26,251 nucleotides of DNA from a virus (taxonomy: Duplodnaviria > Heunggongvirae > Uroviricota > Caudoviricetes): the IMG/VR virus record IMGVR_UViG_2585427768_000003, positions 1 to 26,251 of that record; one strand, written 5' to 3'. The translations under genes and the position numbers were made by a program. The notes under the pieces are model-generated. The model did no database searches. It was not told where the DNA came from and saw only the letters and a list, made by a program, of their open reading frames with translations. Shown here one piece after another: positions 1,369 to 25,716 of this stretch; the first letter of the stretch is position 1; each line of letters starts with the position of its first letter.

Positions 1369-1444
1369 GCCGATATAGCTCAGTTGGTAGAGCAGCGCAT
1401 TCGTAATGCGAAGGTCGTAGGTTCGACTCCTATTATCGGCACCA
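1369..1444 (+). tRNA. thrW: tRNA-Thr (anticodon CGU)
   Basis: 76-nt sequence GCCGATATAGCTCAGTTGGTAGAGCAGCGCATTCGTAATGCGAAGGTCGTAGGTTCGACTCCTATTATCGGCACCA; acceptor stem GCCGATA/TATCGGC, anticodon loop TTCGTAA, T-loop GGTTCGACTCC, encoded CCA. Confidence 0.92.
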
Positions 1445-1446
1445 TT
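1399..1446. repeat. attL core: 48 bp identical to 25669..25716 (3' part of thrW)
   Basis: exact 48-bp direct repeat ATTCGTAATGCGAAGGTCGTAGGTTCGACTCCTATTATCGGCACCATT; flanking bases diverge on both sides. Confidence 0.85.
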
Positions 1447-1458
1447 TAAATCAATAAG

Positions 1459-2622
1459 TTACACATCATTAGTACCTTCCTTATTTTTTGACTGGGACAA
1501 ATTTGGGACCGATGGGTTCAGGATCGAGTCTATTTGCCGTGCGTGTTCGGTAAGGTGATTAGGTGCAAGGTGAGCATATCGACGAACCATTTCGATAGAC
1601 TCCCAGCCTCCCATTTCCTGTAACACTGACAACGGGACTCCGGCTTGAACCAGCCAACTTGCCCAGGTGTGTCTCAAGTCGTGAAATCTGAAATCATCAA
1701 TATCAGCCCGTCTCAGCGCCGCTTTCCAGGCTGTGTTTGCGTCATACCGCATCTTCCTTACTGTTGGCGCTTTCGTTCCGTCTGGTTTGGTACAGCTTTC
1801 CTTGTACACAAATACCCAACGGTGATGATTCCCGATTTGTTTTTTCAATACGCGACATGCAGTATCATTCAGCGCAACGCCAATTGCGCGGTTTGATTTA
1901 CTCTCTTCCGGGTTTATCCATGCCACCCGGCGCTGCATATCTATTTGTTGCCATTCAAGGTTGATGATGTTCGAGCGTCTTAAACCTGTTGCCAGTGCAA
2001 ATTCAACAACAGACTTTAATGGCTCCGGACATTCATCAATCAGCCTTTGTGCTTCATGGGGCTCCAGCCAGCGGATCCGTTTATTCTTTGGTTGAGGCAC
2101 TTTAATAATTGGTGCCTTATCCAGCATTTTCCATTCACGCTCTGCGGCTCTTAGTAGGGCCTTTATAAATGAAAGATGCGTAGCCTTCGTTGCAACGGAC
2201 GCTGGTTTTGGCGTGTATTCTGGAACAGGTTTCCCTTTTTTTCTGCATGCTTCTGCCCTGAGTCTCCAGTTTTCCTCATGACGCCGGTTCGTCATTTTCT
2301 GCATTGCTGAATAAATTTTTGATTCAGTAATGTCTCTTAGTTGCATTCCTGCGAAATGTTGAAGCCAGAATCCGATCCGGCTTTTGTCATCGTCCAGTGA
2401 TTTTTTATGTGCTTTCTCTTCAAGCCACCTGACACACGCTTCCTCGAACGTTATATCAGGTATTTCACCAAGTTTGCTGACCCGCCATGCTTCAGCCTTT
2501 AGCTTGTCATGGAGTTCTGTCGCCTGCCTTTTGTCCTTTGTTCCAAGAGACTGTTTAAATCTTTTACCGTTCGGCAATGTGAAACTGGCGTACCATATTT
2601 CACCTCTGCGGAAGAGTGACAT
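1459..2622 (-). CDS. int: tyrosine site-specific integrase (P22-like)
   Basis: 387 aa; C-terminal [10 protein letters not shown] and RRYAHL motifs typical of tyrosine recombinases; N-terminus matches my recall of P22 Int; ATG at 2622 with GAGGA Shine-Dalgarno; adjacent to tRNA att site. Confidence 0.9.
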
Positions 2623-2849
2623 TTTCTTTCCTCTGTTATGCCATCACCCGCGCTCACCTGGACAGTATGCAGCGGAGACTGAAGAGCCGCAATGCAGGCT
2701 TGTCGTGTTGTGAGGTAAGGAGATTTATTCTTAGTGGGATCTTTGCGTGTTGCCTGAAGACGCCCTGTGCGTATCCAGTTAATGGCAGTCGGTCTGGATA
2801 TCTTGAGAAAATGACAGGCCTCATCGAGTGTGAGGCTGTATGGCTCCAT
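2499..2849 (-). CDS. xis: excisionase / AlpA-like helix-turn-helix protein
   Basis: 116 aa starting [31 protein letters not shown] (AlpA/Xis-type HTH); ATG at 2849 shares one base with the upstream stop (TAATG); 3' end overlaps int start as in lambdoid xis-int. Confidence 0.7.
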
Positions 2850-3154
2850 TATTTCACCTCTTGCTGTGACATTGTTGAAAAATGGATACCAGCTCGTTGC
2901 TGCCAGACGATCCAACCGAGAGTCATATCCCATGCCATGTATTCGTTATCGCCGTTTTTTGCTCTCCGACGATCTACTAAGTCACCGAAACGCTTTTCCA
3001 TGAATAATTCATAAGCTTCGCGTTCATCTGGTTCTACTTCCAGAGATAGGAGTGCGATTTCATAAGCACGGCGCTCAATATCGTCTCGCACGTCAAGGCT
3101 GTTGATACGCTCTTTAATTTCTTTAATCAGTTCTTTGTCGGTAAAAGTGGTCAT
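2849..3154 (-). CDS. hypothetical early-region phage protein (acidic, 101 aa)
   Basis: ORF with ATG at 3154 preceded by GGAG; start overlaps upstream stop (TAATG) indicating translational coupling. Confidence 0.6.
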   Translation of the reverse strand: MTTFTDKELIKEIKERINSLDVRDDIERRAYEIALLSLEVEPDEREAYELFMEKRFGDLVDRRRAKNGDNEYMAWDMTLGWIVWQQRAGIHFSTMSQQEVK

Positions 3155-3516
3155 TATGCTCCAGCCTCCGGTGCTTTTGGCATTACTGCCCAGTGAGTGA
3201 TATTGACGTTTTCAAGGTCCCCGACCTGAAATGTCCACTGCCATTCTCCGGTTTCTTTTTGTCCCCAGGTGTACCAGAGAGAACGCCAGCCAATTAGCCA
3301 GCCTTCTCCGTTAGCATCGAATAACAAAACACTTTCATTTGCTGGTGGCAGTTCAGTTGACACTGGTATTACTTTGTTTTCCTGTGCTGCACATTTAGCT
3401 TCAAGCGCATCGAATTTACGCACCAGGTATTCAGCATCTGTTTCATTTACTTTCAGATCTCGCGGTACACATCTCCCACGAAGAAACCCTTCCATTTCGA
3501 AAACATTCATGCGCAT
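3154..3516 (-). CDS. hypothetical early-region phage protein (Trp-rich C-terminus, possibly DUF551-like)
   Basis: 120-aa ORF, ATG at 3516 with GGAG upstream; overlaps the HD-domain gene stop by 10 nt. Confidence 0.6.
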   Translation of the reverse strand: MRMNVFEMEGFLRGRCVPRDLKVNETDAEYLVRKFDALEAKCAAQENKVIPVSTELPPANESVLLFDANGEGWLIGWRSLWYTWGQKETGEWQWTFQVGDLENVNITHWAVMPKAPEAGA

Positions 3517-4043
3517 TTGCGTAACTCCGATAACTCGTTAAAGCGTTCCATAAACATCCCGTAGGCATGGCCCGGTGCCAGTGGAATCACGTTGAACATC
3601 TCTGTTGCCGGGATACCTTCCAGTACAGGCCAGAAAGAGCCATCATCAAGCCCGAGATCGCGGCGTTCGGTTGCCAGCATGATGAGATCGGCATATTTCA
3701 CGGGCGTACTCATAACTGGGGGTAACCCGTATTTCTCACGGATTACGGCGTCTATTTTTTCTTCCATTTGTTTATAGTCAGGAAGAAGGCGTTTCAGTGG
3801 TGCGGGAATGTCCTGGCAATACGCTTCTGTTGCATCATGCATTAACGCTTCAAAAGCAAATTCCTGCGGCACCAGCTGGCTGCAAAGAACCGCATGTTGG
3901 GCGACGCTGTAGAAGTGCGAAAGATGACCGGCAAAGCGACAGATATTTGAAAGGGAAACCGCGATATCGTTAATATCGATGTCGTCTTTATTTATCCTGT
4001 CATAATAAAAATGCTTCCCGGAAAAAGTTTTAATAAATGACAT
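3507..4043 (-). CDS. HD-domain phosphohydrolase (YfdR-like 5'-deoxynucleotidase family)
   Basis: metal-binding His in SVAQHAVL and HD dyad in LMHDATEAY; ORF track start 4070 is GTG, I prefer ATG at 4043 (MSFIKTF) preceded by GGAG at 6-nt spacing. Confidence 0.75.
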   Translation of the reverse strand: MSFIKTFSGKHFYYDRINKDDIDINDIAVSLSNICRFAGHLSHFYSVAQHAVLCSQLVPQEFAFEALMHDATEAYCQDIPAPLKRLLPDYKQMEEKIDAVIREKYGLPPVMSTPVKYADLIMLATERRDLGLDDGSFWPVLEGIPATEMFNVIPLAPGHAYGMFMERFNELSELRKCA

Positions 4044-4137
4044 TTTGTTCTCCACGTATATGCGCTGCACCGCGCTGAATTCTGGTAAAAAGAATCCCTC
4101 ACCATCCGGCGATTATTGAGTAAATTACGTTTCCATA

Positions 4138-4159
4138 AATGCCCCCGCAGGGGCATTTG
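4138..4159 (-). other. 9-bp-stem hairpin AAATGCCCC-CGCA-GGGGCATTT between two early genes
   Basis: perfect 9-bp inverted repeat with 4-nt loop, 12 nt after the 4171 stop; no clear U-tract, so possibly an RNA stability or processing element rather than a terminator. Confidence 0.3.
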
Positions 4160-4170
4160 CAGTAATGAAA

Positions 4171-4995
4171 TCAGGCGGTGAAAGTACCAATAAAGGTTTC
4201 TACTTTGCTGTCCTTGAATTTCTCAACAAGCAGATCACGAAATTCGTTAGCCATTTCTTCCTGCACCGCCTCCAGCTGAATAATGCGCAGAACCAGTACA
4301 GGACGATCGCCAGTGATAATACTGAGGCGTAATTTAAACGGACGTTCTTTCAGACCTTCAAACGGAACGCATTTAAATTCAAATGCCACTGGCATAATGT
4401 CTTTGGTCTTCGCTTCGACAGACTCCATCAGGGAGCGTTTGCCGCTGAAGTCATTATCTTCAAAATCAGCGGTCTGGTTTGCTTCAATCGTGATTTTACG
4501 GACAGCCGCAGCCGCTTTTGTTGCCTGAATAGCGTCACCATTAGCATCAAAGCCCACAAGATAGTCTGCCCAGTCTTCAATCCATTCTGCTAGTGACTTC
4601 TGGGAGTTACGCTCGCCGTTAATAGACAACAGAGCAGAGAACGGTGCTGTCTTTTTCAGTTTGAGTGTGGCGGTGTTATCTGCGTGACCTGGTTCATCAA
4701 TAGTACCCAGGTTAAGCACACTGACGGCTCGCATATTATCGGCATCGATAAAGCAGCGGGTGCCTTCATCTGCAAGATCTTTAGAATAACGGGTAAAGTC
4801 ATCGATGCTGGCAGTGGAAAGCGCACCACGGAAACGGAAGCGATTTAAATTAAATTTTTCCAGATCATGAATGCGGAAATTCTCAGGCAATGCCACAGCA
4901 TCGGCACCAATCTTACTGATAATTTCATTAACACCCTGAGCAGAAATAAGGGCATGGATTTGATTAATTGCGGTTGCGTCTAAGTTCTGAGACAT
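4171..4995 (-). CDS. conserved phage protein, YfdQ-like (DUF2303-type)
   Basis: 274-aa ORF, ATG at 4995 with GAGGA upstream; position between the YfdP-like and HD-domain genes mirrors CPS-53 yfdP-yfdQ-yfdR order; family assignment from recall only. Confidence 0.55.
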
Positions 4996-5060
4996 AATAA
5001 GTCCTCACTATATAAAGATATTCAGTGATGAGATAAATAATCGGTTAATTAAGAACGATA

Positions 5061-5423
5061 TTAATGACCTGCTGCGCGGAGTTTTCCGTCAGGTTCACCG
5101 GCAAGAGTCAGTAATTGTCCCTGGTCTTCCTGCAGAATAGTCAGGCGACCACCGCGATTGACATACATCGGCGTTTCGGTGGTGTCTTCTTCGGAAATTT
5201 TCCCGCGGTTAGTCGGGCGAACATATGAGAGTTTGTGTTTGATTTTCACACGGTTCTCATCAAATGGTTCGATTTCCAGGTTGAGTGAGACCTTACCTTT
5301 GGTTTTCGTGTTCATCACACCGGAAGCGACTTCACTGAGAACTGCGCCGATTTTGGTTTCAAATACGCCGCCGTCCAGCTCCCCAATAAATGCCTGCACA
5401 TCAGTACTGCGTTCGCTAGCCAT
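5061..5423 (-). CDS. hypothetical early phage protein (YfdP-like)
   Basis: 120 aa from ATG at 5423 (MASERSTDVQ...) preceded by AGGAG at 7-nt spacing; the ORF-track extension to 5741 runs through GC-rich structured noncoding DNA and is rejected. Confidence 0.65.
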   Translation of the reverse strand: MASERSTDVQAFIGELDGGVFETKIGAVLSEVASGVMNTKTKGKVSLNLEIEPFDENRVKIKHKLSYVRPTNRGKISEEDTTETPMYVNRGGRLTILQEDQGQLLTLAGEPDGKLRAAGH

Positions 5424-5471
5424 TTTTCTGCTCCTAATCATATCGACCCTGCAAGGTCGGTTGGTTTCTCC

Positions 5472-5560
5472 ACAAAACAGAGAAGAACACCTGCGGTGGC
5501 AGCCGCCCGGATGGATTGGGTTATGAGCCCGTCGTCCGGTGATGTTCTTCTCTGTTTTGT
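5472..5560. repeat. 18-bp perfect inverted repeat (ACAAAACAGAGAAGAACA / TGTTCTTCTCTGTTTTGT) with 53-nt GC-rich spacer
   Basis: arms 5472..5489 and 5543..5560 are exact reverse complements; sits in a ~440-bp noncoding interval upstream of the YfdP-like gene. Confidence 0.8.
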
Positions 5561-5861
5561 AAAAAGAGCGGTACCAGCCGGAAGCAAGTGTACAAACTGG
5601 TACCGCGAGGACTACACACAGCATAAAGTTGTGGTGCCGGGTGCCTCCCGGTGCCTGGCGAAAGTTGCACACCAGGCGGGTGGGTATCCACAGAAGGTCG
5701 ACTGTCAGCCTCAACCTTAACCCGCGTGCGCTGAGCCGCATTCACCACAACGCTAAGGATTCTCTCTGGTTGAAAATACTTAGCTGTTATGTGCCTGTCT
5801 TTTCACCACTTCAGGCTCGGTGGTATCTTGGTGTTTTCATATAGCCAAGAAGGAAATAGTT

Positions 5862-6478: not shown

Positions 6479-7105
6479 TTAGAGTTCGTATTGAACTCCT
6501 TTGACTACACCAATGATAAGGCAATTACCATTGATAGGGATGTTGGGATACCGAGGATTTAATGGCACTAAAAACTTTTGAGGGCCATCGATGACTAATT
6601 TTTTTACTGTAGCTTCGTTTGTTCCATCAAGTCGAGCGATGACTATTTTTCCATGACGAGGTTCTGCATCTGGATCTACAATCACTGTTGCGCCTTCTGG
6701 TATTGTTGGGAGGCCATTAGGGTTAGTCATGGAGTCACCTTTAACCTCTAATGCAAATGAGTTATCACCAATCTTTAATGATGTATCTACCCACTTGTCC
6801 ACTTCACTAAACACTTCTGCTGCCCTGCACTCAGTAAACTGCCCAGCCTGAACCCACGATATTACAGGAACTCTGCGCATGTTTGTGACGAGTTTGCCTT
6901 CAAACTCAGCACCATAAAGAATGTAATCTATTGACGTATTGAAGAACTTCGCTAATTTCGAAAGTGCCTCCCCACCAGGGGTATTGATGTCTTTCTCCCA
7001 GTACCCCACAGCAACGTCGCTTACTCCACAAAATTTACCCAATTCTTTCTGGGACGTTCCGGTAACTCTTCTCAGAGCTTTTATACGCTGACCAACCGTT
7101 TCCAT
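6479..7105 (-). CDS. CI-like prophage repressor (HTH_XRE N-terminus, S24 LexA-type peptidase C-terminus)
   Basis: 208 aa; N-terminal HTH (QKELGKFCGVSDVAVGYWEKD), C-terminal GDSM serine motif and downstream Lys; ATG at 7105 has no Shine-Dalgarno, compatible with a leaderless PRM-type transcript. Confidence 0.88.
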   Translation of the reverse strand: METVGQRIKALRRVTGTSQKELGKFCGVSDVAVGYWEKDINTPGGEALSKLAKFFNTSIDYILYGAEFEGKLVTNMRRVPVISWVQAGQFTECRAAEVFSEVDKWVDTSLKIGDNSFALEVKGDSMTNPNGLPTIPEGATVIVDPDAEPRHGKIVIARLDGTNEATVKKLVIDGPQKFLVPLNPRYPNIPINGNCLIIGVVKGVQYEL

Positions 7106-7202: not shown

Positions 7203-7403
7203 ATGACAACTGACGATATCGAAAGCTACTTCGGCAGTATTGAGAAAGTTGCTGCTTTTTTCGGCATAACAACTGAAGCCGTTTATCAGTGGCGAAACCG
7301 TCCGGGCCAGTTAATTCCAAAAGGACGTGCAGCAGAAGCTGCATATAGAACTTGCGGACGGTTGCCATTTAAACCTGAGCTTTATGAAAAATCTAATGGA
7401 TAA
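7203..7403 (+). CDS. Cro-like small HTH regulator
   Basis: 66 aa, divergent from cI, ATG at 7203 preceded by GGAGGG; HTH-like segment IEKVAAFFGITTEAVYQWRNR. Confidence 0.75.
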   Translation: MTTDDIESYFGSIEKVAAFFGITTEAVYQWRNRPGQLIPKGRAAEAAYRTCGRLPFKPELYEKSNG

Positions 7404-7992
7404 ATCGATTAACAGAAACCACAGAACGATGAGGCTAACCGTGGGTAAGCATCACTGGAAAGTAGAAAAACAGCCTGAGTGGTACGTGAAAGCTGTCAGA
7501 AAAACTATCGCAGCGTTGCCGGGTGGTTACGCTGAAGCAGCTGACTGGCTGGATGTAACAGAAAACGCATTATTTAACCGTCTTCGTGCCGATGGCGATC
7601 AGATTTTCCCGCTGGGATGGGCAATGATTTTGCAACGTGCTGGTGGAACTCACTTCATTGCTGACGCTGTGGCGCAGTCTGCAAATGGCGTCTTTGTGTC
7701 TCTTCCTGACGTCGAGGATGTGGACAACGCCGATATTAACCAGCGCCTGCTGGAAGTCATTGAACAGATTGGCAGTTATTCCAGACAGATTCGTTCGGCA
7801 ATCGAAGACGGTGTGGTGGAACCGCATGAGAAGACAGCAATTAACGACGAGCTGTATCTCTCAATTTCGAAGCTGCAGGAGCATGCAGCACTGGTCTACA
7901 AAATCTTTTGCATTTCAGAAAGTAATGACGCCCGCGAGTGTGCAGCTCCGGGCGCCGTGGCGTGTCGTGACTGTGGAGAAACTAACGCATGA
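7384..7992 (+). CDS. CII-like / YdaT-family-like phage regulatory protein
   Basis: ORF downstream of cro in the CII position; start uncertain (ATG at 7384, 7396 or 7429, all weak Shine-Dalgarno; the track start 7327 overlaps cro and is rejected); family from recall only. Confidence 0.45.
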
Positions 7993-8336: not shown

Positions 8337-9278
8337 ATGAGCACTAAATTAACCGGCTATGTATGGGATGGTTGCGCTGCATCAGGCATGAAATTATCCA
8401 GCGTGGCAATTATGGCCCGCCTGGCTGATTTCAGTAATGACGAAGGTGTGTGCTGGCCATCAATTGAAACTATTGCCCGTCAGATTGGCGCGGGGATGAG
8501 TACCGTCAGGACGGCTATCGCACGGCTGGAAGCAGAAGGCTGGTTAACACGTAAGGCGCGTCGCCAGGGTAACCGCAATGCGTCGAATGTTTATCAGCTT
8601 AACGTTGCGAAGCTTCAGGCAGCGGCATTTTCTCAACTGTCAGATTCTGACCCGTCAAAATCTGACGCATCAAAATCTGACCCGTCAAAATTTGATGCGT
8701 CGAAATCTGGCAAAAAAGCGGGTTTTCACCCGTCAGAATCTGGCGGGGATCCGTCAGTAAAATCAAAACATGATCCGTCAGATAAAAAACCTTCTCGTCC
8801 GGACGCTTCGCAACCGGACACGCAGACGGATGAACAGGATTTTTTAACTCGCCATCCTGATGCGGTTGTATTCAGCCCTAAAAAGCGCCAGTGGGGAACG
8901 CAGGATGATTTGACCTGCGCACAGTGGCTCTGGAAAAAAATCATCGCCCTGTACGAGCAAGCCGCCGAATGTGACGGCGAGGTGGTTCGTCCCAAAGAAC
9001 CGAACTGGACAGCCTGGGCAAACGAAATTCGCCTGATGTGTGTGCAGGATGGTCGTACTCACAAACAAATCTGCGAGATGTACAGCCGCGTCAGCCGCGA
9101 TCCGTTCTGGTGCCGTAACGTGCTCAGCCCGTCGAAGTTGCGGGAAAAATGGGATGAGCTTTCCCTGCGCTTATCACCGTCCGTCAGCACGTACACCGAA
9201 AAACGCGAAGACCCGTACTTCAAAGCCAGTTACGACAACGTGGACTACAGCCAGATCCCGGCAGGATTCAGGGGGTGA
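8337..9278 (+). CDS. phage replication initiation protein (N-terminal HTH, C-terminal DnaT-like domain)
   Basis: 313 aa; ATG at 8337 with AGAGG upstream; N-terminus typical of replication-initiator HTH proteins; C-terminus ends ...DYSQIPAGFRG, resembling the DnaT C-terminal ...SQIPPGFRG; central linker encoded by an iteron array. Confidence 0.75.
   Translation: MSTKLTGYVWDGCAASGMKLSSVAIMARLADFSNDEGVCWPSIETIARQIGAGMSTVRTAIARLEAEGWLTRKARRQGNRNASNVYQLNVAKLQAAAFSQLSDSDPSKSDASKSDPSKFDASKSGKKAGFHPSESGGDPSVKSKHDPSDKKPSRPDASQPDTQTDEQDFLTRHPDAVVFSPKKRQWGTQDDLTCAQWLWKKIIALYEQAAECDGEVVRPKEPNWTAWANEIRLMCVQDGRTHKQICEMYSRVSRDPFWCRNVLSPSKLREKWDELSLRLSPSVSTYTEKREDPYFKASYDNVDYSQIPAGFRG
8639..8744 (+). repeat. 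iteron array (putative origin) inside the replication gene: 13-bp GTCARAATCTGAC-like repeats
   Basis: five copies at exact 15-bp phasing starting 8639, 8654, 8669, 8684, 8699 and a sixth at 8732; first copy GTCAGATTCTGAC is palindromic; degenerate copies to ~8780 followed by A-rich tract. Confidence 0.7.
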
Positions 9279-9280
9279 TC

Positions 9281-9769
9281 ATGAGTCTTTTGAATGACGT
9301 TCAGAAATTCATTGAAGCCCATCCGGGGTGTACTTCCGGAGACATTGCAGATGCTTTTGCTGGTTACTCACGGCAGCGCGTTCTGCAGTCAGCAAGCAAG
9401 TTACGTCAGAGTGGGCGTGTGGCTCACCGTTGTGAAGGGGATACACGCAGACATTTCCCGCGCCTGACTGAGAGAGCGCAGGAGCCGGAACCACAACCAG
9501 TTCGTGAAACCAGACCTGTGCGCAATTTCTATGTCGGCACTAACGACCCCCGGGTGATTTTGTGCCTGACCCGCCAGGCTGAAGAACTGGAGTCCAGGGG
9601 CTTATTCCGTCGAGCTGCAACGGTGTGGATGGAGGCATTCCGTGAAAGCCACTCCCAGCCAGAACGAAACAATTTTCTGGCGCATCGTGAGCGGTGCTTA
9701 CGGAAAAGCAGCAAGCGCGCTGCATCGGGTGAAGAGTGGTATCTGTCAGGGAATTACGTGGGGGCTTAA
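9281..9769 (+). CDS. hypothetical protein with putative winged-helix N-terminus
   Basis: 162 aa from ATG at 9281 (track start 9275 is GTG); upstream stop overlaps; weak resemblance to wHTH regulators, function not established. Confidence 0.55.
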   Translation: MSLLNDVQKFIEAHPGCTSGDIADAFAGYSRQRVLQSASKLRQSGRVAHRCEGDTRRHFPRLTERAQEPEPQPVRETRPVRNFYVGTNDPRVILCLTRQAEELESRGLFRRAATVWMEAFRESHSQPERNNFLAHRERCLRKSSKRAASGEEWYLSGNYVGA

Positions 9770-13709: not shown

Positions 13710-13858
13710 CGGCTGAATACCTTACTGATCGCTTCTTTGATTGCGCCAGCTACTGGCGCATTAATCCCTTCGAATTGCTGAATATGCCGATCAGTGAAAT
13801 TCCCTTGCTGGTCAGTCAGGCAAACAGGATAGAGCAGGAGAAACGCACACATGGCTGA
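13440..13858 (+). CDS. tail assembly chaperone, predicted -1 frameshift fusion product
   Basis: -1 frame after the slippery site stays open to 13858 (FFPPGLTAEYLTDRFFD...) and overlaps the tape-measure start, the conserved G/GT-type arrangement. Confidence 0.65.
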
Positions 13859-16356: not shown

Positions 16357-16366
16357 CGGAGTGTAT

Positions 16367-17695
16367 ATGACGTGGAAAGACAGGCTTCAGGATGCGTCAT
16401 TTCGAGGTGTGCCGTTTAAGGTTGAAGAAGAAAGTGCGGGAACCGGTCGCCGTGTGGAAACACATGAATACCCGAACCGCGACAAGCCCTATACCGAAGA
16501 TCTGGGAAAAGTCACTTTCCGCCCGTCCATCACAGCTTATGTGGTGGGAGATGACTGCTTTGACCAGCGCGATCGCCTGATTGAAGCGCTGAATAAACCC
16601 GGTCCCGGCAAGCTTGTCCACCCGACATATGGTGAGCTGAAAGTCTGTGTTGACGGGGAAGTTCGGGTCAGCACATCGAAAAGTGAAGGGCGTATTGTCC
16701 GCTTTGACCTGAAGTTTGTCGAAGCAGGAGAACTCTCTTACCCCACATCAGGTGCGGCGACGGCGCAGACGCTGATGTCATCCTGTTCTGCACTGGATGA
16801 CTGCATCAGTGACAGTTTCAGTGGTTTCAGTATCGATGGCGTGGCGGATTTTGTGCAGAACGACGTCGTCGGTAATGCCAGCACAATGCTTGGGTATGTT
16901 TCTGATGCGATGAAAGTGGTGGATTCTGCCGTATCGGATGCCGCCAGACTGTTGCAGGGGGATATCTCGGTACTTCTGCCGCCGCCATCGTCAGGCAAAA
17001 ATTTCGTTGAGCAGGTGCAGAAAATGTGGCGTACCGGGAAGCGCCTTTATGGTAACGCCAGCGACCTGGTCACCATGATCAAAACGCTTTCCGGTGTCAG
17101 CCTCGGCAGCGATCTGCAACCGCGCGGCGTCTGGAAAACGGACAGTAAAACCACCGCCACGGCTACGCAGCAGCGTAACGTGGTTGCCAGCACCCTTCGT
17201 ACGACCGCAATCAGCGAAGCGGCGTATGCCGTCACCCGATTGCCTGCGCCAACAACTTCCGCGGTGATGCAGAATGCCGCAGTGGGGCAGGCAACAACAC
17301 CTGCGCAGAGCACTGGCTGGCCTTCCGTCACGCATCCGGCACTGAACAATGCACCGGCGGTGAAAAACACAGTTGACCTGCCGACGTGGGAAGAACTGAC
17401 TGACATTCGCGACACACTGAATACGGCAATTGATAAGGAGTTGTCCCGTACAACCAGTGATGCGCTGTTTCTGGCGCTGCGCCGGGTGAAAGCAGATCTG
17501 AATGCGGATATCAACACGCGCCTTGAACAGTCTGCACGGATCATTCAGCGCACGCCGGATGAGGTTTTACCCGCGCTGGTGCTGGCGGCGACCTGGTTTG
17601 ATAACGCGGCGCGTGACGCGGACATTATCCGGCGTAATGCCATTACGCATCCCGGCTTTGTGCCGGTGATCCCTCTGAAGGTGCCAGTGCAATGA
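16367..17695 (+). CDS. DNA circularisation protein (Mu N-like) of the tail/baseplate module
   Basis: about 443 aa; ATG at 16367 preceded by GGAG at 5-nt spacing (track start 16361 is GTG); N-terminus WKDRLQDASFRGVPFKVEEE typical of Mu N family. Confidence 0.8.
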   Translation: MTWKDRLQDASFRGVPFKVEEESAGTGRRVETHEYPNRDKPYTEDLGKVTFRPSITAYVVGDDCFDQRDRLIEALNKPGPGKLVHPTYGELKVCVDGEVRVSTSKSEGRIVRFDLKFVEAGELSYPTSGAATAQTLMSSCSALDDCISDSFSGFSIDGVADFVQNDVVGNASTMLGYVSDAMKVVDSAVSDAARLLQGDISVLLPPPSSGKNFVEQVQKMWRTGKRLYGNASDLVTMIKTLSGVSLGSDLQPRGVWKTDSKTTATATQQRNVVASTLRTTAISEAAYAVTRLPAPTTSAVMQNAAVGQATTPAQSTGWPSVTHPALNNAPAVKNTVDLPTWEELTDIRDTLNTAIDKELSRTTSDALFLALRRVKADLNADINTRLEQSARIIQRTPDEVLPALVLAATWFDNAARDADIIRRNAITHPGFVPVIPLKVPVQ

Positions 17696-18771
17696 ACGAT
17701 AACGTCACGCTACGGGTAAATGGCCGGGAGTGGAATGGCTGGACATCGGTGCGCATCGGTGCCGGTGTTGAACGACTGGCGCGGGATTTCAGTGTGGAGA
17801 TCCCCCGCCAGTGGCCGGGAGATGATGGTATCACCACGCTTCAGCCGCGCATTAAAAATGGTTCAAAAGTGGAAGTGCTGATTGGTGATGAGCTGGTGAT
17901 CACCGGCTGGGTGGAGGCGACCCCCGTTCGTTACGATGCCCGTTCGGTCAGCACCGGTATTGCCGGACGTAGTCTGACCGCTGACCTGATTGACTGTGCA
18001 GCCGAACCGACACAGTTTAACGGACGATCGCTGGTACAGATTGCGCAGGCGCTTGCTGCGCCTTTCGGCATTGAGGTGGTGAACAGCGATGCGCCGTCGG
18101 GTGTTATTCCGGATGTCCAGCCTGATCACGGTGAAACGGTGATCGAGGTGATCAACAAAATACTCGGTCAGCAGCAGGCGCTGGCTTATGACGACCCGCA
18201 CGGCAGGCTGGTGATTGGTGGTATTGGCTCAACGCGGGCACATACCGCGCTGGTACTTGGGGAAAACATCCTTTCCTGTGATACGGAGAAGAGTATCCGG
18301 GAGCGGTTTTCAGTTTACCAGGTGGCGGGGCAGCGTGCCGGAAACGACGATGATTTCGGTGAGGCCACCACCACCGCGCTGCGGGCCCGCACAGAGGATG
18401 CATTTATTGCCCGTTACCGTCCGATGTATATCAGGCAGACAGGGCAGGCTACGGGGGCAGGCTGTATTGCGCGTGCTGACTTTGAAGCCCGACAACGGGC
18501 GGCGCGGACGGATGAAACCACCTATGTGGTGCAGGGCTGGCGACAGGGTAACGGTACGCTGTGGCAGCCCAACCAGCGGGTGATTGTCTTCGATCCGGTC
18601 TGTGGTTTCGACAATACCGAACTGCTTGTCTCGGAAGTCACGTTTACTCAGGACCAGAATGGCACCCTGACGGAAATCCGTGTCGGCCCGCCTGATGCTT
18701 ATCTGCCTGAACCCGAAGATCCCGGCGCGCGGAAAAAGAAAAAAGCCAGAGTACAGGAGGACCCGTTCTGA
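17692..18771 (+). CDS. baseplate hub protein (Mu P / P2 gpD-like)
   Basis: 359 aa; ATGA overlap with upstream gene; position and sequence flavour of gpD-type hub proteins. Confidence 0.8.
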   Translation: MNDNVTLRVNGREWNGWTSVRIGAGVERLARDFSVEIPRQWPGDDGITTLQPRIKNGSKVEVLIGDELVITGWVEATPVRYDARSVSTGIAGRSLTADLIDCAAEPTQFNGRSLVQIAQALAAPFGIEVVNSDAPSGVIPDVQPDHGETVIEVINKILGQQQALAYDDPHGRLVIGGIGSTRAHTALVLGENILSCDTEKSIRERFSVYQVAGQRAGNDDDFGEATTTALRARTEDAFIARYRPMYIRQTGQATGAGCIARADFEARQRAARTDETTYVVQGWRQGNGTLWQPNQRVIVFDPVCGFDNTELLVSEVTFTQDQNGTLTEIRVGPPDAYLPEPEDPGARKKKKARVQEDPF

Positions 18772-19319
18772 TGAGGACGATTGAAGCAATGCAGCGACAA
18801 CTTCTCGGCCTGATTGGGCGGGCAGTGGTGAAAAGCATCAGTGCCGCCACGAAATGTCAGACCGTGGATGTGTCCCTGATTGCCGGTGAACCCAAAGCCG
18901 GGGTTGAACATCTTGAACCCTACGGTTTTACCGCAAGGGCAAACAGCGGTGCGGAAGCGGTGGTGTTGTTTCCGGATGGCGACCGTTCTCACGCGGTGGT
19001 TGTTACGGTGTCGGACCGTCGCTACCGCCTGAAAGGGCTGCAGACGGGTGAGGTGGCTGTCTATGACGATCAGGGGCAGTCCGTGACGCTGACCCGGGAG
19101 GGGATCGTGGTGGACGGTGCAGGTAAAACGATCACGTTTCGCAATTCACCTAAAGCACGTTTTGAAATGGACCTTGAAGTGACCGGACAGGTGAAAGACC
19201 TGTGCGACTCCGGCGGTACCACCATGTCAGCGATGCAGCTTGCCTATAACGGGCATCGTCACAGAGAGAACGGTCAGGGCAGTAACACCGACAAACCTGA
19301 TAAAGCGATGGAGGCATGA
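18771..19319 (+). CDS. baseplate assembly / spike protein (gpV-like, Mu gp45-like)
   Basis: 182 aa; TGATG overlap; follows the hub gene as in Mu and P2 baseplate clusters. Confidence 0.75.
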   Translation: MRTIEAMQRQLLGLIGRAVVKSISAATKCQTVDVSLIAGEPKAGVEHLEPYGFTARANSGAEAVVLFPDGDRSHAVVVTVSDRRYRLKGLQTGEVAVYDDQGQSVTLTREGIVVDGAGKTITFRNSPKARFEMDLEVTGQVKDLCDSGGTTMSAMQLAYNGHRHRENGQGSNTDKPDKAMEA

Positions 19320-19744
19320 TGGAACTGTGGCTGACGGTGAACGGTAAACGCACCTGCGCCAGCGCACAGCTGGATCCGCTGACCCGCGCCGTGGTGATTT
19401 CCCTGTTTACCTGGCGGCGGGCGGAGCCTGATGACAACGCCGACGTCCCGATGGGATGGTGGGGGGATACCTGGCCTGCGGTACAGAATGACCGTTACGG
19501 CTCCCGACTGTGGCTGCTTCAGCGCAGCAAACTGACCAATCAGCTGGTGCAGACGGTAAGGGGGTATATCCGCGAATGCCTGCAATGGATGATTGATGAC
19601 GGCGTGGTGTCCCGTATTGATCTGGATATCCGCCGCACCGGGATTAATGAACTGGGTAACAGTATCACTCTCTGGCGTCGTGACGGACCGGTAATGATTT
19701 CTTTTGATGATCTGTGGAGTGCGATAACGCATGGCGGACAGTGA
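19316..19744 (+). CDS. baseplate protein (Mu gp46 / gpW-like)
   Basis: 142 aa; overlaps neighbours at both ends; order conserved with Mu gp46. Confidence 0.7.
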   Translation: MMELWLTVNGKRTCASAQLDPLTRAVVISLFTWRRAEPDDNADVPMGWWGDTWPAVQNDRYGSRLWLLQRSKLTNQLVQTVRGYIRECLQWMIDDGVVSRIDLDIRRTGINELGNSITLWRRDGPVMISFDDLWSAITHGGQ

Positions 19745-20790
19745 ATTTCAGCGCCCGACGCTGGCAGAAAATATCAGTATGCTCCGTAACGATTTATTCG
19801 CCAGGCTGGACGTCAGCAACACGCTCCGGCGCATGGATGAAGACGTGCGGGCAAAGGTGTATGCGGCGGCGCTGCATACGGTTTACGGGTACATCGATTA
19901 TCTGGCAATGAACATGCTGCCTGACCTGTGCGATGAGTCCTGGCTGGCGCGACATGCTGCGATGAAACGGTGTCCGCGCAAGGGGGCCACGGCTGCCAGC
20001 GGGTATATGCGCTGGGAAGGTGTCAGCGATGGCCTGAAGGTGACCGCCGGGAGTGTTATTCAGCGCGATGACCTGGTGCAGTACACGGCAACTGCCGATG
20101 CAACCAGCTCCGGTGGTGTCCTGCGCGTGCCGATCGCCTGCTCAAGTGCAGGCGCGGTCGGTAACGCTGACGACGGTACGTCATTAATCCTGGTCACGCC
20201 GGTGAATGGTCTGCCGTCTTCCGGCGTGGCAGATACACTGACAGGTGGATTTGATACTGAAGAGCTGGAAACGTGGCGCGCCCGCGTCATTGAGCGGTAT
20301 TACTGGACGCCTCAGGGCGGGGCTGACGGGGACTATGTCGTCTGGGCTAAAGAAGTGCCCGGCATTACCCGCGCATGGACATACCGACACTGGATGGGAA
20401 CGGGGACTGTCGGTGTGATGATTGCCAGCAGTGACCTGATTAATCCCATTCCGGAAGAATCAACGGAAATGGCGGCAAGACAACATATCGGGCCACTGGC
20501 CCCGGTGGCAGGCTCTGATTTGTATGTGTTCAGGCCGGTGGCGCATACGGTGGATTTTCATATCCGTGTGACGATCGGATACACCAGAAATACGGGCTGC
20601 CATCACCGCCGAGTTGCGTTCGTTCCTGCTGCGTGATGGTTATCCGCAGGGAGAACTGAAGGTGTCGCGTATCAGTGAAGCGATTTCCGGTGCGAACGGG
20701 GAATACAGCCATCAGTTGCTTGCACCGGCAGACAATATCTCCATTGCAAAAAATGAACTGGCGGTACTGGGGACGATTTCATGGACGTGA
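19731..20790 (+). pseudogene. baseplate J-like protein (Mu gp47-like), interrupted by a +1 frame change near 20572..20585
   Basis: frame 0 ORF 19731..20636 ends in a basic tail unlike the rest (…RNTGCHHRRVAFVPAA); the +1 frame opens at 20572 and reads a protein-like C-terminus (TPEIRAAITAELRSFLLRDGYPQGELKVSRISEAISGANGEY...) ending in a stop that overlaps the next gene start (ATGGACGTGA). Confidence 0.6.
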
Positions 20791-21365
20791 CAAACGATGA
20801 TTACATCCGTCTGTTGTCGGCACTGTTGCCCCCCGGTCCGGCGTGGTCAGCCAGCGATCCGGCGATTGCCGGTGCGGCACCGTCATTAACCCGCGTTCAT
20901 CAGCGTGCGGATGCCCTGATGCGGGAGCTGGATCCGCGCACCACCACTGAACTGATAAACCGCTGGGAGCGTCTGTGCGGCCTGCCGGATGAATGTATTC
21001 CTACAGGGACACAGACCCTTCGCCAGCGTCAGCAACGGCTGGATGCGAAGATTAATCTGGCGGGCGGCATTAATGAGGATTTTTACCTTGCACAGCTTGC
21101 TGCCCTGGGCAGACCAGACGCCACCATCACGCGATACGATAAAAGCACGTTCACCTGCTCATCTGCCTGTACTGACGCGGTGAATGCGCCGGAATGGCGG
21201 TATTACTGGCAGGTCAACATGCCAGCCGCCACCAACACCACCTGGATGACATGTGGCGATCCCTGTGATTCCGCACTGCGTATCTGGGGCGACACCGTTG
21301 TCGAGTGTGTGCTTAACAAACTCTGCCCTTCGCATACCTACGTAATTTTTAAATATCCGGAGTAA
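20781..21365 (+). CDS. tail protein (Mu gp48 / YmfQ-like, DUF2313-type)
   Basis: 194 aa; located between baseplate J-like and tail fiber genes; family from recall. Confidence 0.7.
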
Positions 21366-21368: not shown

Positions 21369-22469
21369 ATGCATCGTATAGACACGAAAACCGCGCAGAA
21401 GGATAAGTTCGGCGCGGGTAAGAACGGTTTTACCCGTGGTAACCCCCAGACCGGCACGCCTGCCACCGATCTGGATGATGACTACTTTGACATGTTGCAG
21501 GAAGAACTCTGCAGCGTGGTGGAGGCATCCGGTGCCAGCCTGGAGAAGGGGCGGCACGATCAGCTTCTTACCGCGCTTCGTGCGCTGCTGTTAAGCCGCA
21601 AGAATCCGTTTGGCGATATCAAATCGGATGGCACTGTGCAAACGGCTCTCGAAAACCTGGGAATGACAGACATTCTGAATGATAAACAGGATAAAAATGA
21701 TAATCTGACATCATTGTCGAGCTTAACAGGAATACCGGATGGGCTGGCATTTTTTACAGGTGCTGGAACAATGGATATGACAGCGCTGACTCAAAATGGT
21801 AGGGAAATTTTAAGTAAAAAAAACGTATCGGAAACTCTACAATATTTAACACTTGGTGATGGAACAGGAAGGCTTTTGGGGGTTCAGGTATTTGGATCAT
21901 CTGGGACTTATCACAAATCACCTGGTGTAACGAAAATTATAGTGGAAGCCGTTGGCGGTGGTGGTGCCAGTGGCAATTTATCAGCAACAGCCTCAAATAA
22001 CTGTGGTGTAAGTGCTGCCGGTTCCAACGGGGCATATGCTAAAGCATTTTTTTATCAGTCTATACCTGAATCCGTGCAAGTAACTATTGGAAGCGGTGGT
22101 GTAGCAGGAACAGGACCAGGAGGCTCTGGAGGTGACGGCGGGAATACAAGCTTTGGTGATTTGCTTGTATGCCCGGGAGGAAGGGGATCAACTCAAGTTC
22201 AGCAGGTACCTCCATTTTCAGGGGGAAGTGCAACAGAAGCACCAATTCCTACAGGGCAAGGGATTCTGTTCCATTCAGTTTCACGATCAAATTTATGTGG
22301 GGCACTTGGACTTGGTGATGATCAGGCGATTGGCGTTGAAAGTATAACCACTACTATGCTTGGGACATACGGTATTGGCGGGGCAGGGAAATACAATAAG
22401 GCGTCATCAGGCCCAGCGACAGGAAATAATGGAAATCAGGGATATATTCTTGTGTGGGAGTATCAGTAA
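21369..22469 (+). CDS. tail fiber protein with conserved N-terminal anchor and AT-rich glycine-rich C-terminal receptor-binding region
   Basis: 366 aa; N-terminus [17 protein letters not shown]...[19 protein letters not shown] typical of tail fiber anchors; composition shifts to AT-rich near 21660; C-terminal Gly-rich motifs ([25 protein letters not shown]). Confidence 0.8.
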
Positions 22470-22648: not shown

Positions 22649-22664
22649 CGCGGTTTTATTTATT
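22634..22664. terminator. bidirectional Rho-independent terminator between convergent genes
   Basis: stem AACCGCGC/GCGCGGTT with AATA loop, A-tract 5' and T-tract 3'; both convergent stop codons (22646..22648 and 22660..22662) lie inside the element. Confidence 0.7.
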
Positions 22665-23679
22665 TTACTGCTAAAATTCGTTTTCTTAGCATCAGCTCTA
22701 AAGGCTCCTCAACTAATTTATAAAGTATGATTGAGACTATGGTTATTATAACAAGGAGCGCTATTAAATAGAGTGGTCCGGGGTTATGTCCAAAGATTTT
22801 AAAGCAAAATAATATAATGGGTTGATGAATTAAATAAAAAATAAATGATGATTTCCCTAATAGCTCTAGGGTTTTTGAACTGAGGATAGTATGAATGACT
22901 CCATTTCTTAGATAGATGCATGAAGTAAAGAATATTACCATGGGGAGTAAATAATATAACGAATAACGTAGACTATTATTTATGTTGTTGCTATAATATA
23001 TAGCTATTAGCAGAGGTAATAGTGAAATTAAAAACAAAAGGCTGTCGACTGTCTGCTGTCGGCTGTTTTTCCAGCAAGCGTAAATAATCATGCCGCAAAT
23101 AAATTCTACCAAGCGGCTTACTGGGAATATATAATATAACCAGTGATTAAGTTCTTCTGTTTGTATAATTTTTAAAAAATATATAGTTAATAGTAGAGTT
23201 ATAATTGATATTGCAGTGATTACTTTCTTTGTAATTGATGTATAAATCAACGGAATAAACATTAAATAAAAAAACAGCTCATCAGACAAAGACCATGATA
23301 CACCATTTAATGAGAAGTAGTAATCCTCCTTTGGTATCCAACTTTGCATTAATAAAATATTTGTTAAGGTTTTTGAAAAATCAAAGTTCTTTAAGTGAAT
23401 GGTTAGTAAAATAAATGGCATGGCTAATAATAGATGCATTGGAACAATTCTTGCCAATCTTAAAAGAATAAACTGTCTTTTACTTGTTACTTCATTTTTT
23501 AGCTTGTCTTCATATGAATATGAAAGAATGAAGCCAGATAAAATAAAGAAAAAGGAAACGCCAATAAATCCCTGGGAAAACATTTCTTTTACAAAAACAC
23601 CAAAATAGTCTGTATTTAAATGGCATAAATAAACCATTAATGCAGCTATAAATCTGAGTCCTGTTAAGTGGCGAAGCAT
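22660..23679 (-). CDS. membrane acyltransferase family 3 (O-antigen acetyltransferase Oac/OafA-like), likely serotype-conversion gene
   Basis: 339 aa from ATG at 23679 (AAGAGG Shine-Dalgarno; track start 23709 also possible); multiple predicted TM helices; N-terminal RHLTGLRFIAALMVYLCH motif typical of acyltransferase-3; very AT-rich. Confidence 0.8.
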   Translation of the reverse strand: MLRHLTGLRFIAALMVYLCHLNTDYFGVFVKEMFSQGFIGVSFFFILSGFILSYSYEDKLKNEVTSKRQFILLRLARIVPMHLLLAMPFILLTIHLKNFDFSKTLTNILLMQSWIPKEDYYFSLNGVSWSLSDELFFYLMFIPLIYTSITKKVITAISIITLLLTIYFLKIIQTEELNHWLYYIFPVSRLVEFICGMIIYACWKNSRQQTVDSLLFLISLLPLLIAIYYSNNINNSLRYSLYYLLPMVIFFTSCIYLRNGVIHTILSSKTLELLGKSSFIFYLIHQPIILFCFKIFGHNPGPLYLIALLVIITIVSIILYKLVEEPLELMLRKRILAVK

Positions 23680-23982
23680 CAATAACCTCTTGTTATGAAG
23701 ATAAAGCAATTCAAAAGAGGCATTTTATGACTGTAGGGGATTGGTGTCTATATGAATGAGTAATCTGGTTTTTAAAATCTTCTTTAATTACAAAATAAAC
23801 CTTTCTTAGGCTATAGATTTGTGGCTGTAACACTGTGTGTCCACGACATTGAGACATCCTTCCGCTTTGCTATAGATGTGGAATTCAGGATCAAGCGATA
23901 TCGGACTCATCCTCAGCACCACCCGGTTAATCTGGATAACGGGAGAAGGGAAGCGCTGCCAGAAGATGATGATGGTTACAGT

Positions 23983-24414: not shown

Positions 24415-24442
24415 AAGGCTCCCAATGGGAGCCTTATTTTTT
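24415..24442 (+). terminator. Rho-independent terminator (9-bp stem AAGGCTCCC / GGGAGCCTT, 3-nt loop, ATTTTTT)
   Basis: perfect hairpin followed by T6 on the plus strand; lies 18 nt beyond the stop of the minus-strand 57-aa gene, so may act bidirectionally. Confidence 0.65.
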
Positions 24443-24459
24443 GATAGGGATGATGAATA

Positions 24460-24633
24460 TTATCCGAGGCTTACTGGCTTTACACCTTTCTTCGGCCCGA
24501 CCATATCCATGTCTTTTTCCTTCTGACCAACTTTGGCAAGTTTGTTGCCGTCGATGGAAGCCCAGAAGTCGAGAGAGCGTCTTGCACTAGCCATAGCTTT
24601 ATCAGAAGTGATTTTTTTATGTTGTTTGATCAT
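24460..24633 (-). CDS. small Lys-rich hypothetical protein (57 aa)
   Basis: ATG at 24633 preceded by AGAGG at 6-nt spacing; below the ORF-track size cutoff; sequence MIKQHKKITSDKAMASARRSLDFWASIDGNKLAKVGQKEKDMDMVGPKKGVKPVSLG. Confidence 0.5.
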   Translation of the reverse strand: MIKQHKKITSDKAMASARRSLDFWASIDGNKLAKVGQKEKDMDMVGPKKGVKPVSLG

Positions 24634-24723
24634 GGTTAACCTCTTTGGCTATAGACTTTACGGATAATTTTATAACAAATGCGTTCATTAAACAAACAGC
24701 CCATCGACTGCTGATTGAGATTG

Positions 24724-25296
24724 TCATTCTTCAACTGGGTCAATGCCATTCACTTTCCGTCGTATGGTGTCGAGGATGTCGTGCACATCTGCAGACATCT
24801 TACTGTGGTCATGCCATACTTGGGCAAATCCGTAGCTCCTGTAACGCGGTTGTGCATCTTCAGTAGGATCTTGAATATAAACGTCGTCAAGCTCCGCGAT
24901 CTGGCAGAAGGTAGTCGCGTAAATAAGTGCGATGATCAACACATTGCCTGTTAGGTCGGTATCCTCATCTGAAATGAAGTTTTCTAACATGCAAATTGAG
25001 AATTGCTCACGGCGCCAGTCGTATTTACAAATGATAACCGCATGAAGCTGTTCGGGCTCATCACGGTCGATCAGCTTTAACGTTATATCCAGTATTCCAT
25101 CTACAGCGTCACCGCGATAGGTCTGCATCGCCCATCGCCAGTCCAAGTGGCTTTGTAAACTTGCATCTTCAAGCTGGCGTCTCTCTTCATCGCTCAAAAC
25201 GCCTACAGAGATATTAGTCCATCCAAGTGATTCAATAGCTTTTTGTGTTGTTGCTAGACATTGATCATGTATTTGCTGAGTAGATAGGAAGCTCAC
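24724..25296 (-). CDS. hypothetical acidic protein (190 aa), unknown function
   Basis: GTG start at 25296 with AAGGA upstream; protein-like composition; only a weak GNAT-like C-terminal Y-x-x-Y-G-F, no canonical acetyl-CoA motif. Confidence 0.5.
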   Translation of the reverse strand: MSFLSTQQIHDQCLATTQKAIESLGWTNISVGVLSDEERRQLEDASLQSHLDWRWAMQTYRGDAVDGILDITLKLIDRDEPEQLHAVIICKYDWRREQFSICMLENFISDEDTDLTGNVLIIALIYATTFCQIAELDDVYIQDPTEDAQPRYRSYGFAQVWHDHSKMSADVHDILDTIRRKVNGIDPVEE

Positions 25297-25668
25297 TTCA
25301 TGTCATCCTTTATCTTTTGTCCCACAGCAATTATATCGTTCAAGTGTGAAAGTAGGCGAGTTATTCTGACCTACGCCTCTCGCTATACGTGGTTTTAGAG
25401 GGCTGACATGACTGTTCCCAGCTGATTGCCACACGGCATTGTTCGCAAGATTTATGTCGACTCAATTATGAACGTCTGCTGATCGCTCATAACAGGCATT
25501 CACTACATTTATCTTCATTGGCTATGCAAGTCGTAATACAAGTTGGGACAAAACTGAGACACATAAGGCCTCACAATGGCTTGCAAGGCTTTACATGTTT
25601 TGATGTGATGGGACGTGTGAGCGCAGTGTTGATGGGGTAATGCTTTGAATTAGAAACGGATTCTTATA

Positions 25669-25716
25669 ATTCGTAATGCGAAGGTCGTAGGTTCGACTCC
25701 TATTATCGGCACCATT
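25669..25716. repeat. attR: partial copy of thrW 3' end (anticodon loop to acceptor 3' end)
   Basis: 48 bp identical to 1399..1446; lacks the tRNA 5' half, so not a functional tRNA. Confidence 0.85.

Follow-up and report, generated by a model that had tools for sequence, protein, structure and literature searches.

A headless element with a Mu-type contractile tail in Escherichia coli thrW is very probably a recently truncated prophage of the SfV/SfII/SfIV family

The 26,251-nucleotide stretch of DNA analysed here (hereafter the window; positions 1 to 26,251 of IMG/VR virus record IMGVR_UViG_2585427768_000003) contains an integrated element of 24,334 bp with phage-type regulation and replication genes and a Mu-type contractile tail module. 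Comparison with full-length relatives indicates that this element is very probably a defective prophage of the SfV/SfII/SfIV family, located in thrW of Escherichia coli and recently truncated by one deletion of 14,372 bp. Phages of this family combine lambdoid regulation, an HK97-type head, cos packaging and a Mu-type contractile tail. An earlier note, made from the sequence alone, had favoured a cryptic prophage that had lost roughly 12–15 kb between the methylase and the tail connector genes, and alignment to a full-length prophage in E. coli KSC1031 places a loss of that size at that position. The second and less likely reading in that note, a tailocin-like element or a satellite that makes its own tails, found no support: the element has no lysis cassette, no Q or late promoter and no cos site, its baseplate J gene is frameshifted and its deletion junction is found nowhere else.

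Mapping of the deletion

Nucleotide identity to SfII, SfV and SfIV is 97–98% over 62–72% of the element. Alignment to SfV-like phages, which the earlier note had suggested as a means of mapping the loss, gave a single discontinuity: by local blastn, window positions 7416–10528 correspond to SfII 29721–32831 (in SfV, up to 30373), and to the right of the junction positions 10524–15677 correspond to SfV 6447–11600 and SfII 6753–11906. The sequence missing at this point amounts to 13,147 bp when SfV is taken as the reference and to 15,396 bp when SfII is.

A search with the part of the right arm that does not resemble SfV (window positions 21600–25700) gave a match at 100% identity to E. coli KSC1031, which carries a full-length prophage (NZ_CP019560.1, 4249938–4288643) at the same site, flanked by proA–thrW on one side and LysR'–paoD on the other. 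Window positions 1–10528 align without gaps to positions 2041–12568 of the KSC1031 locus (L004), with seven mismatches; as all seven fall within proA, the left arm of the prophage is identical in the two strains. Positions 10524–26251 align to L004 26936–42663 with 12 mismatches and two single-base indels. Within the prophage itself the differences from KSC1031 are six substitutions and two single-base indels, all in the right arm, and the sole large difference is a clean deletion of 14,372 bp, the distance between the attachment (att) sites being 38,706 bp in KSC1031 and 24,334 bp in the window.

The deletion junction lies at 10524..10528, as defined by the blastn coordinates. The SfV and SfII blocks on its two sides have the five nucleotides GGATA in common, and relative to KSC1031 the joined sides share just TA (GG.TA), which argues for illegitimate recombination rather than recombination between repeats or an insertion-sequence (IS) event. 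The deletion begins 106 nt past the end of the Dam gene and finishes within the tail-completion/Neck1 gene. The result is a fusion open reading frame (ORF; 10419..10868, + strand) in which codons 1–35 of the LexA-like orf42 are in frame with tail-completion/Neck1 codons 55–168, as seen in PHROG matches and in tblastn with SfV orf42 and orf8. Residues 1–39 of the fusion match positions 1–39 of phrog_362 (a repressor family) and residues 36–149 match positions 55–168 of the 168 positions of phrog_879 (Neck1/tail-completion). The ORFs in 10419..11425 had been called hypothetical in the earlier note, with the caution that head or terminase homologs might be found among them. They are instead the junction fusion (10419–10868) and the tail terminator (10865..11425, + strand; Phage_tail_terminator, E = 2e-26), and no head or terminase homolog is present in this stretch.

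According to the annotation of KSC1031, 22 whole genes and two partial genes were lost. The early end of the lost block comprises the 3' two-thirds of the LexA-like gene, RusA, KilA-N, DUF968 and a Q-type antitermination protein. It is followed by the lysis part, with two hypothetical genes, two holins, a GH19 endolysin, a DUF2514 spanin-like gene and two more hypothetical genes, and by the packaging and head part, with HNH, terS, terL, YmfR, portal, HK97 protease and the major capsid protein (MCP). The block ends with one hypothetical gene, the head–tail connector, head closure and the first 54 codons of tail-completion/Neck1. Phages of the SfV family are packaged from cos, which lies between HNH and terS, and their late expression is dependent on Q (PMC3851460). 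The cos site is within the lost block; the intergenic region between HNH and terS in KSC1031 matches the joined SfV ends with 86% identity over 270 nt.

The KSC1031 prophage thus resembles the element in its integration site, flanks, immunity region, moron, tail fibre and acyltransferase, but retains the 14,372 bp with the late regulator, lysis genes, cos, packaging and head genes and has an intact baseplate J gene. The tape-measure gene of KSC1031 contains one extra A (window position 15592, L004 position 32004) and is annotated as frameshifted, whereas the gene in the window is intact; either the KSC1031 prophage would also be defective or the extra A would be a sequencing error in its assembly. 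SfV, SfII, SfIV and SfI share with the element the thrW att core, int and xis, the early-left, replication and dam genes, the entire Mu-type tail module (97–98% nucleotide identity) and the gene order. They differ in that the immunity region of the window (approximately 6383–7416) is of another type, in that the window has an additional moron (15677–16343) and a different C-terminus of the tail fibre, and in that the Sf phages have gtrABC in the serotype-conversion slot where the window has an acyltransferase gene that is unrelated to SfII_25. The Sf phages also have the late, lysis and head block of 13.1–15.4 kb that the window is without.

The chromosomal flanks of the window differ from those of KSC1031 at 12 of 1,917 positions (0.63%), compared with six of 24,334 positions (0.025%) for the prophage, a difference of ∼25-fold (Fisher p = 3e-10), so that the prophage must be much younger than the split between the two hosts. 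Such a pattern is in keeping with the recent arrival of an active phage that then lost DNA in place. Evidently the same phage recently lysogenized two different E. coli lineages, or proA recombined. The seven differences in proA cluster at positions 162–289.

Absence of head, packaging and lysis functions

Scans with Pfam and PHROG covered ∼40 ORFs of the window, and ORFs of note were also searched against NCBIfam; no ORF matched a terminase, portal, protease, capsid, holin, lysozyme or spanin family. When all six frames of the window were searched by tblastn, the SfV terS, terL, portal, protease, MCP, adaptor (Ad1) and head-closure proteins gave only chance-level matches, as did SfV RusA, Q, the orf48 methylase, S, R, Rz, Rz1, HNH and gtrA/B/V. 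The best of these was a single 19-residue stretch with the head-closure query (E = 0.002), and all others had E values of at least 0.08. Of the cos DNA of SfV and KSC1031 and of the late-promoter DNA between Q and the holin gene, only chance 10–17-mers occur in the window, those of the cos region being 10–15-mers. A remnant of a second integrase, which would point to a tandem element, was not found in the window.

These profile and six-frame searches, of the kind proposed in the earlier note for terminase, portal, capsid, holin and endolysin, bear out its description of an element that has regulation and replication but is devoid of capsid, packaging and lysis genes. The set of functions needed to form a virion (terminase, portal, protease, capsid, connectors, cos, Q and lysis) is absent by six-frame tblastn and by blastn, and the element is therefore a defective derivative rather than a viable member of the SfV/SfII family.

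Integration site and boundaries

The left flank of the element is proA (1..1254, + strand), a 417-residue ORF with an Aldedh domain; proA is annotated at the equivalent place in KSC1031 and in strains MSI001, DLI.5a and EC31, which carry related prophages described below. It is followed by the only tRNA gene of the window, thrW, which encodes tRNA-Thr(CGT) (1369..1444, + strand; ARAGORN, Rfam tRNA 71.8 bits) and the 3' 46 nt of which form the att core. A 64 nt direct repeat that starts within the tRNA gene bounds the element as attL (1399..1462) and attR (25669..25732); its two copies (repeat family D2) are 95% identical and agree perfectly over the first 48 nt. The two arms of the element correspond to the two sides of attP in SfV: window positions 1399–5827 match SfV 20592–25020 and positions 25544–25732 match SfV 20467–20655, with the two matches overlapping on the core. 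SfI, SfIV and SfV are reported to integrate in thrW through a 46 bp attP (PMC3851460), and the element, integrated in thrW with this 46 bp core at both ends, has the arrangement expected of the SfV/SfII family.

To the right of attR lies a LysR' fragment (25841..26251, − strand; LysR_substrate) that adjoins paoD, and this flank is 99.8% identical to many E. coli chromosomes. An extension of the element beyond the tRNA-derived repeats, which the earlier note had regarded as damaging to its reading, is not seen: both flanks are chromosomal, and the element ends at the repeats.

Tail module and baseplate J

The tail module starts with the shortened tail-completion/Neck1 gene of the fusion and the tail terminator and continues on the + strand with a DUF2635 (Mu gp38-like) protein (11434..11604; Pfam), the contractile tail sheath (11588..13084; three sheath domains), the tail tube (13084..13440; Tail_tube, E = 2e-33), a tail assembly chaperone (13440..13709; Phage_TAC_7) and a tape measure protein of 610 residues, which is intact (13851..15683; PhageMin_Tail and TIGR01760). 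The baseplate genes, also on the + strand, encode a Mu gpN-like DNA circularization/baseplate protein (16361..17695; DNA_circ_N, E = 5e-34), the Mu gpP-like hub (17692..18771; GpP-like domains), the spike (Mu gp45; 18771..19319; Phage_Mu_Gp45), the wedge protein gp46 (19316..19744; GP46), baseplate J/gp47 (19731..20790; Baseplate_J) and the wedge protein gp48 (20781..21365; Phage_Mu_Gp48). The last gene of the module encodes a tail fibre with an SfV-like N-terminus and a glycine-rich C-terminal domain (21369..22469, + strand; tblastn with SfV orf21 residues 1–99, Gly_rich_2 and tail-fibre PHROGs). The collinear and highly identical early region, together with this Mu-type tail module, is that of the SfV/SfII family.

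The tail genes are intact in 14 of 16 cases and are 99.9% identical to those of the intact relative. The two damaged genes are tail-completion/Neck1, which is without its first 54 codons, and baseplate J. The contractile tail, which the earlier note described as complete, is therefore not fully intact.

The lesion in baseplate J is a +1 frameshift at 20574–20575, where the window reads AT and SfV, SfII and KSC1031 read C. In tblastn the match to SfV gp47 is split, with residues 1–281 mapping to 19731–20573 and residues 283–352 mapping to 20578–20787. The sequence context of the frameshift, GACGATCGG, is not a homopolymer. The gene now encodes a truncated product of 301 residues, followed by an out-of-frame ORF of 58 residues, and the truncation costs the wedge protein J its last 70 residues. 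Among 1,376 E. coli genomes that have the gene, the best matches align 200 nt to the 201 nt query and so do not have the extra base. The view expressed in the earlier note, that the frameshift argues for decay unless it is a sequencing error, holds: no relative shares it and its site is not a homopolymer, with a sequencing error still being a possible cause.

Distribution of the junction and other decayed relatives

In none of 5,426 complete E. coli genomes did coverage of a 300 nt probe spanning the junction go beyond the left half, and a 39-mer across the junction had no exact match in GTDB species representatives, IMG/VR or JGI metagenome contigs. In comparison, 829 E. coli genomes have the segment from terS to the sheath gene of KSC1031 in one piece, with at least 80% coverage. 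Head plus tail is the normal state of this very common family, and the headless state is not conserved.

Other members of the family have decayed as well. Like the element, K-12 e14, AH65, DLI.5a, EC31 and MSI001 are remnants of the same family that arose from large internal deletions or IS events and that have kept the repressor and scattered late genes; unlike it, each has different endpoints, and the junction in the window is unique. MSI001 has lost the region from the end of Q through HNH via IS1. In DLI.5a (NZ_CP103972.1, L005 13258–13722) the loss extends from cro to the middle of the MCP gene, so that a truncated cro is joined to the 3' end of the capsid gene; the replication, Q, lysis and packaging genes have been removed, and the connectors and the whole tail remain. 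The cargo slot of DLI.5a contains a pair of genes encoding a cytosine methyltransferase and a type II restriction endonuclease. In EC31 (NZ_CP095836.1, L006 19221–36430), which is also in thrW, the deletion runs from just past the lysis genes to the middle of the major capsid gene and takes HNH, terS, terL, portal and protease, whereas Q, the holin, the endolysin, a lysis protein and an apparently intact tail have stayed. The EC31 layout is much closer to a tailocin than that of the window. In K-12 e14 and AH65 a terminase/portal remnant is joined to a baseplate J remnant, with the head and most of the tail lost.

Headless deletions that retain the tail do recur in the thrW prophage family, although the tail-retaining relatives were found with a query of early and tail DNA that is biased towards them. 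Systematic retention of the tail in decayed relatives was considered and rejected, as e14 and AH65 have lost the tail too.

Alternative interpretations

Several observations weigh against a truncated and decaying prophage. Apart from the lesions described, the tail module is complete and essentially unmutated, so that nothing else points to decay over a long time. The early-right region is fused in frame to the tail genes, and some SOS-inducible expression of tail genes may occur. It is conceivable that the 14.4 kb now sits at another place in the genome, in which case the event would be a rearrangement. Both the deletion and the frameshift are known from the assembled sequence alone and not from reads. 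Finally, the 'intact' comparator KSC1031 is annotated with a frameshifted tape measure, and going by that annotation its viability must be taken as unproven.

If the sequence itself were at fault, the true genome would carry an intact prophage and the deletion, the frameshift or both would have arisen in assembly. This is improbable. It would account for the junction and the frameshift each being found in no other sequence, and the single-base indel in the KSC1031 tape measure shows that such differences between assemblies exist. Against this, the joined sequences share only 2–5 nt. Collapse in assembly happens at long repeats and not at a dinucleotide, and the longest repeat in the window is 64 nt. 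The frameshift, a change of C to AT, is outside any homopolymer, and independent and different deletions of a like kind in the finished genomes of MSI001, DLI.5a and EC31 indicate that such deletions are natural events.

It is slightly less probable still that the element is a functional tail-only element, that is, an accidental or domesticated R-type tailocin. Transcription from pR, released by the SOS response, would then pass through the fusion into the tail operon, release would be provided by, for example, the lysis of another prophage, and the frameshift in baseplate J would be a sequencing error. The element does resemble R-type tailocins such as the Pseudomonas R-pyocins in that a contractile-tail set lies beside an SOS-cleavable repressor and genes for head and packaging are missing, and its 14 intact tail genes, the in-frame fusion that puts the tail operon right behind the early-right operon under SOS control and the independent tail-retaining deletions of DLI.5a and EC31 are all in keeping with such a function. 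R-type tailocins, however, have a lysis cassette, a dedicated activator, no integration or replication genes and a fixed, conserved locus (PMC12090994); none of these features is found in the window, where two genes of the tail module are also damaged. Tailocins are released by lysis and are without replication and packaging genes (PMC12090994), whereas no holin, endolysin or spanin was detected here by Pfam, PHROG or tblastn, Q and the late promoter are absent, the corresponding cassette of KSC1031 lies in the block that is deleted, and int, xis, the O-like initiator and its iterons have all been kept. Baseplate J is frameshifted at a site that is not a homopolymer, tail-completion/Neck1 is truncated, and a terminator-like hairpin with a 10 bp stem (16323–16348) stands between the tape measure and the baseplate genes. 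The junction is unique to this sequence, and nothing indicates that it has been retained or has spread; the decayed relatives K-12 e14 and AH65 did not keep the tail either, and the examples of DLI.5a and EC31 came from the biased query mentioned above. Of five testable features of a tailocin, four are lacking, namely an intact tail set, a lysis cassette, freedom from replication and integration genes, and conservation across strains.

A related proposal is that the deletion has wired the tail operon to the SOS-controlled early-right promoter, so that, if the frameshift in baseplate J were a sequencing error, induction could yield contractile tail particles. The chance that this is so is small, about as small as that of an assembly fault. 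Were it true, the element would be a snapshot of the first step in the domestication of a tailocin, and a tailocin could arise in one step; the evidence points the other way.

The least likely possibility, which can be given hardly any weight, is a phage satellite that supplies the tail itself and depends on an SfV-like helper for capsids and packaging. The element does carry an integrase, excisionase, repressor and replication origin of its own and no head or terminase genes, but the integrase, repressor and replication module are those of the parental phage, passed on without change, the deletion includes the cos region, to which nothing in the window matches, so that a helper terminase would have nothing to recognize, no ORF has a known satellite function (capsid-size redirection, helper derepression or interference) in the Pfam, PHROG and PADLOC scans, all retained genes are collinear with and near-identical to those of an ordinary full-length phage, and the element is private to one sequence. 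Measured against known satellites (P4-like, PICI, cf-PICI and PLE), it has an integrase, repressor and replication genes of its own but neither a packaging signal nor exploitation genes or a distinct organization.

Early region

The early region of the element begins with a tyrosine integrase gene (1459..2622, − strand; Phage_integrase, E = 1e-47), the DNA of which is 100% identical in KSC1031, and an excisionase gene of the HTH_17 type (2499..2933, − strand; Pfam) that is collinear with SfV xis. The early-left genes (2849..5741, − strand; Pfam, PHROG and KSC1031 annotation) encode a YfdT-like protein, DUF551, the 5'-deoxynucleotidase YfdR and YfdQ/DUF2303, followed by the YfdP region. A match to the STnc100 small RNA of Rfam is located in the early-left region (5559–5781, − strand; 48.5 bits, compared with a gathering score of 47) and overlaps an ORF upstream of yfdP that PGAP marks as frameshifted in KSC1031.

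The immunity region contains a cI-type repressor of the SOS-cleavable type (6479..7105, − strand), with HTH_3 and Peptidase_S24 domains in Pfam, and cro (7203..7403, + strand; P22_Cro, E = 4e-11). On the same strand as cro follow a cII-like/YmfL gene (7441..7992; Phage_CP76), to which the ymfL coding sequence of KSC1031 maps, and an O-like replication initiator gene (8337..9278; HTH_36 and DnaD_N matches). Six iterons with a spacing of 15 nt (8625–8747, repeat family D1) lie within the O-like gene, as a lambda-style origin embedded in its own initiator gene. A PerC-family regulator (9275..9769, + strand; Pfam PerC) precedes the Dam N6-adenine methyltransferase gene (9769..10422, + strand; Pfam Dam, E = 1e-45, and KSC1031 annotation), which is the last intact gene of the early-right region.

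Cargo genes

The insertion at 15677–16343, between the tape measure and gpN-like genes, is not present in SfV or SfII. It contains a moron of low GC content (15775..16305, + strand; GC 0.385) that encodes a 176-residue protein with a hydrophobic N-terminus, either a membrane anchor or a signal, and that matches phrog_5485 (function unknown); the protein has no Pfam, NCBIfam, PADLOC or PDB match. A promoter and terminator scan gave a promoter-like site at 15712–15739 in addition to the terminator-like hairpin mentioned above.

The gene at 22660..23709 (− strand; GC ∼0.31) encodes an acyltransferase-3 family protein (Acyl_transf_3, E = 2e-30; phrog_3333, O-acetyltransferase) that is probably an O-antigen acetylase. 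It occupies the serotype-conversion slot next to attP, where the Shigella phages have gtrABC, and no gtr match was obtained. A relationship to the SfII acyltransferase, which like the present protein has 349 residues, was considered and rejected, as the two sequences are unrelated. Between this gene and attR, the interval 23869–24126 corresponds to a fragment that is annotated in KSC1031 as an S24-peptidase pseudogene, and a 49 nt segment of it (24078–24126) is 78% identical to the attP-proximal positions 25544–25592, which suggests that remnants of a previous exchange of cargo, or of another phage, persist at the att-proximal end. A 190-residue protein of unknown function is encoded next to attR (24724..25296, − strand); it matched only phrog_4350, with no match in Pfam, PADLOC or NCBIfam. 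No defence-system role for the ORFs of unknown function was found with PADLOC.

Proposed history and significance

As a truncated prophage of the SfV/SfII/SfIV family, the element would have entered thrW as a complete phage of ∼38.7 kb. After lysogeny, 14,372 bp would have been lost in a single illegitimate recombination at the level of microhomology, joining codon 35 of the LexA-like gene to codon 55 of Neck1, and a separate +1 frameshift would have cut baseplate J short. Because a copy without cos and head genes cannot be packaged, the simplest history would be that an intact phage lysogenized the host and that the deletion arose afterwards in place.

In its present form the prophage presumably still confers immunity through cI and probably modifies the O-antigen through the acyltransferase. 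Excision and replication after SOS cleavage of cI may persist, since the prophage does not differ from its full-length relative in int, xis, the att sites, the O-like gene or the iterons; the repressor and operator region is also the same as in KSC1031. The acyltransferase gene, which is on its own strand, and the moron should be expressed from the prophage. Packaging of DNA, building of heads and lysis of the host would be impossible for the element. Its tail operon would be without Q-dependent late transcription and could be reached only by read-through from pR, which without modification by Q should stop at the hairpin ahead of the baseplate genes. With Q lost, a terminator in the path, baseplate J and Neck1 damaged and no lysis genes, the release of functional tails is very unlikely.

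The element is of an ordinary kind, a truncated prophage of a well known family. The appropriate label is a defective SfV/SfII-family prophage with a mapped deletion of 14.4 kb, not a tailocin or a satellite, a distinction that matters little beyond annotation. It does provide a clean and datable example of the inactivation of a prophage, in which one deletion at the level of microhomology and one frameshift are superimposed on an otherwise unmutated phage. The cargo that it has kept, consisting of repressor immunity, a probable O-antigen acetylase and a membrane-anchored moron, may still shape the phenotype of the host.

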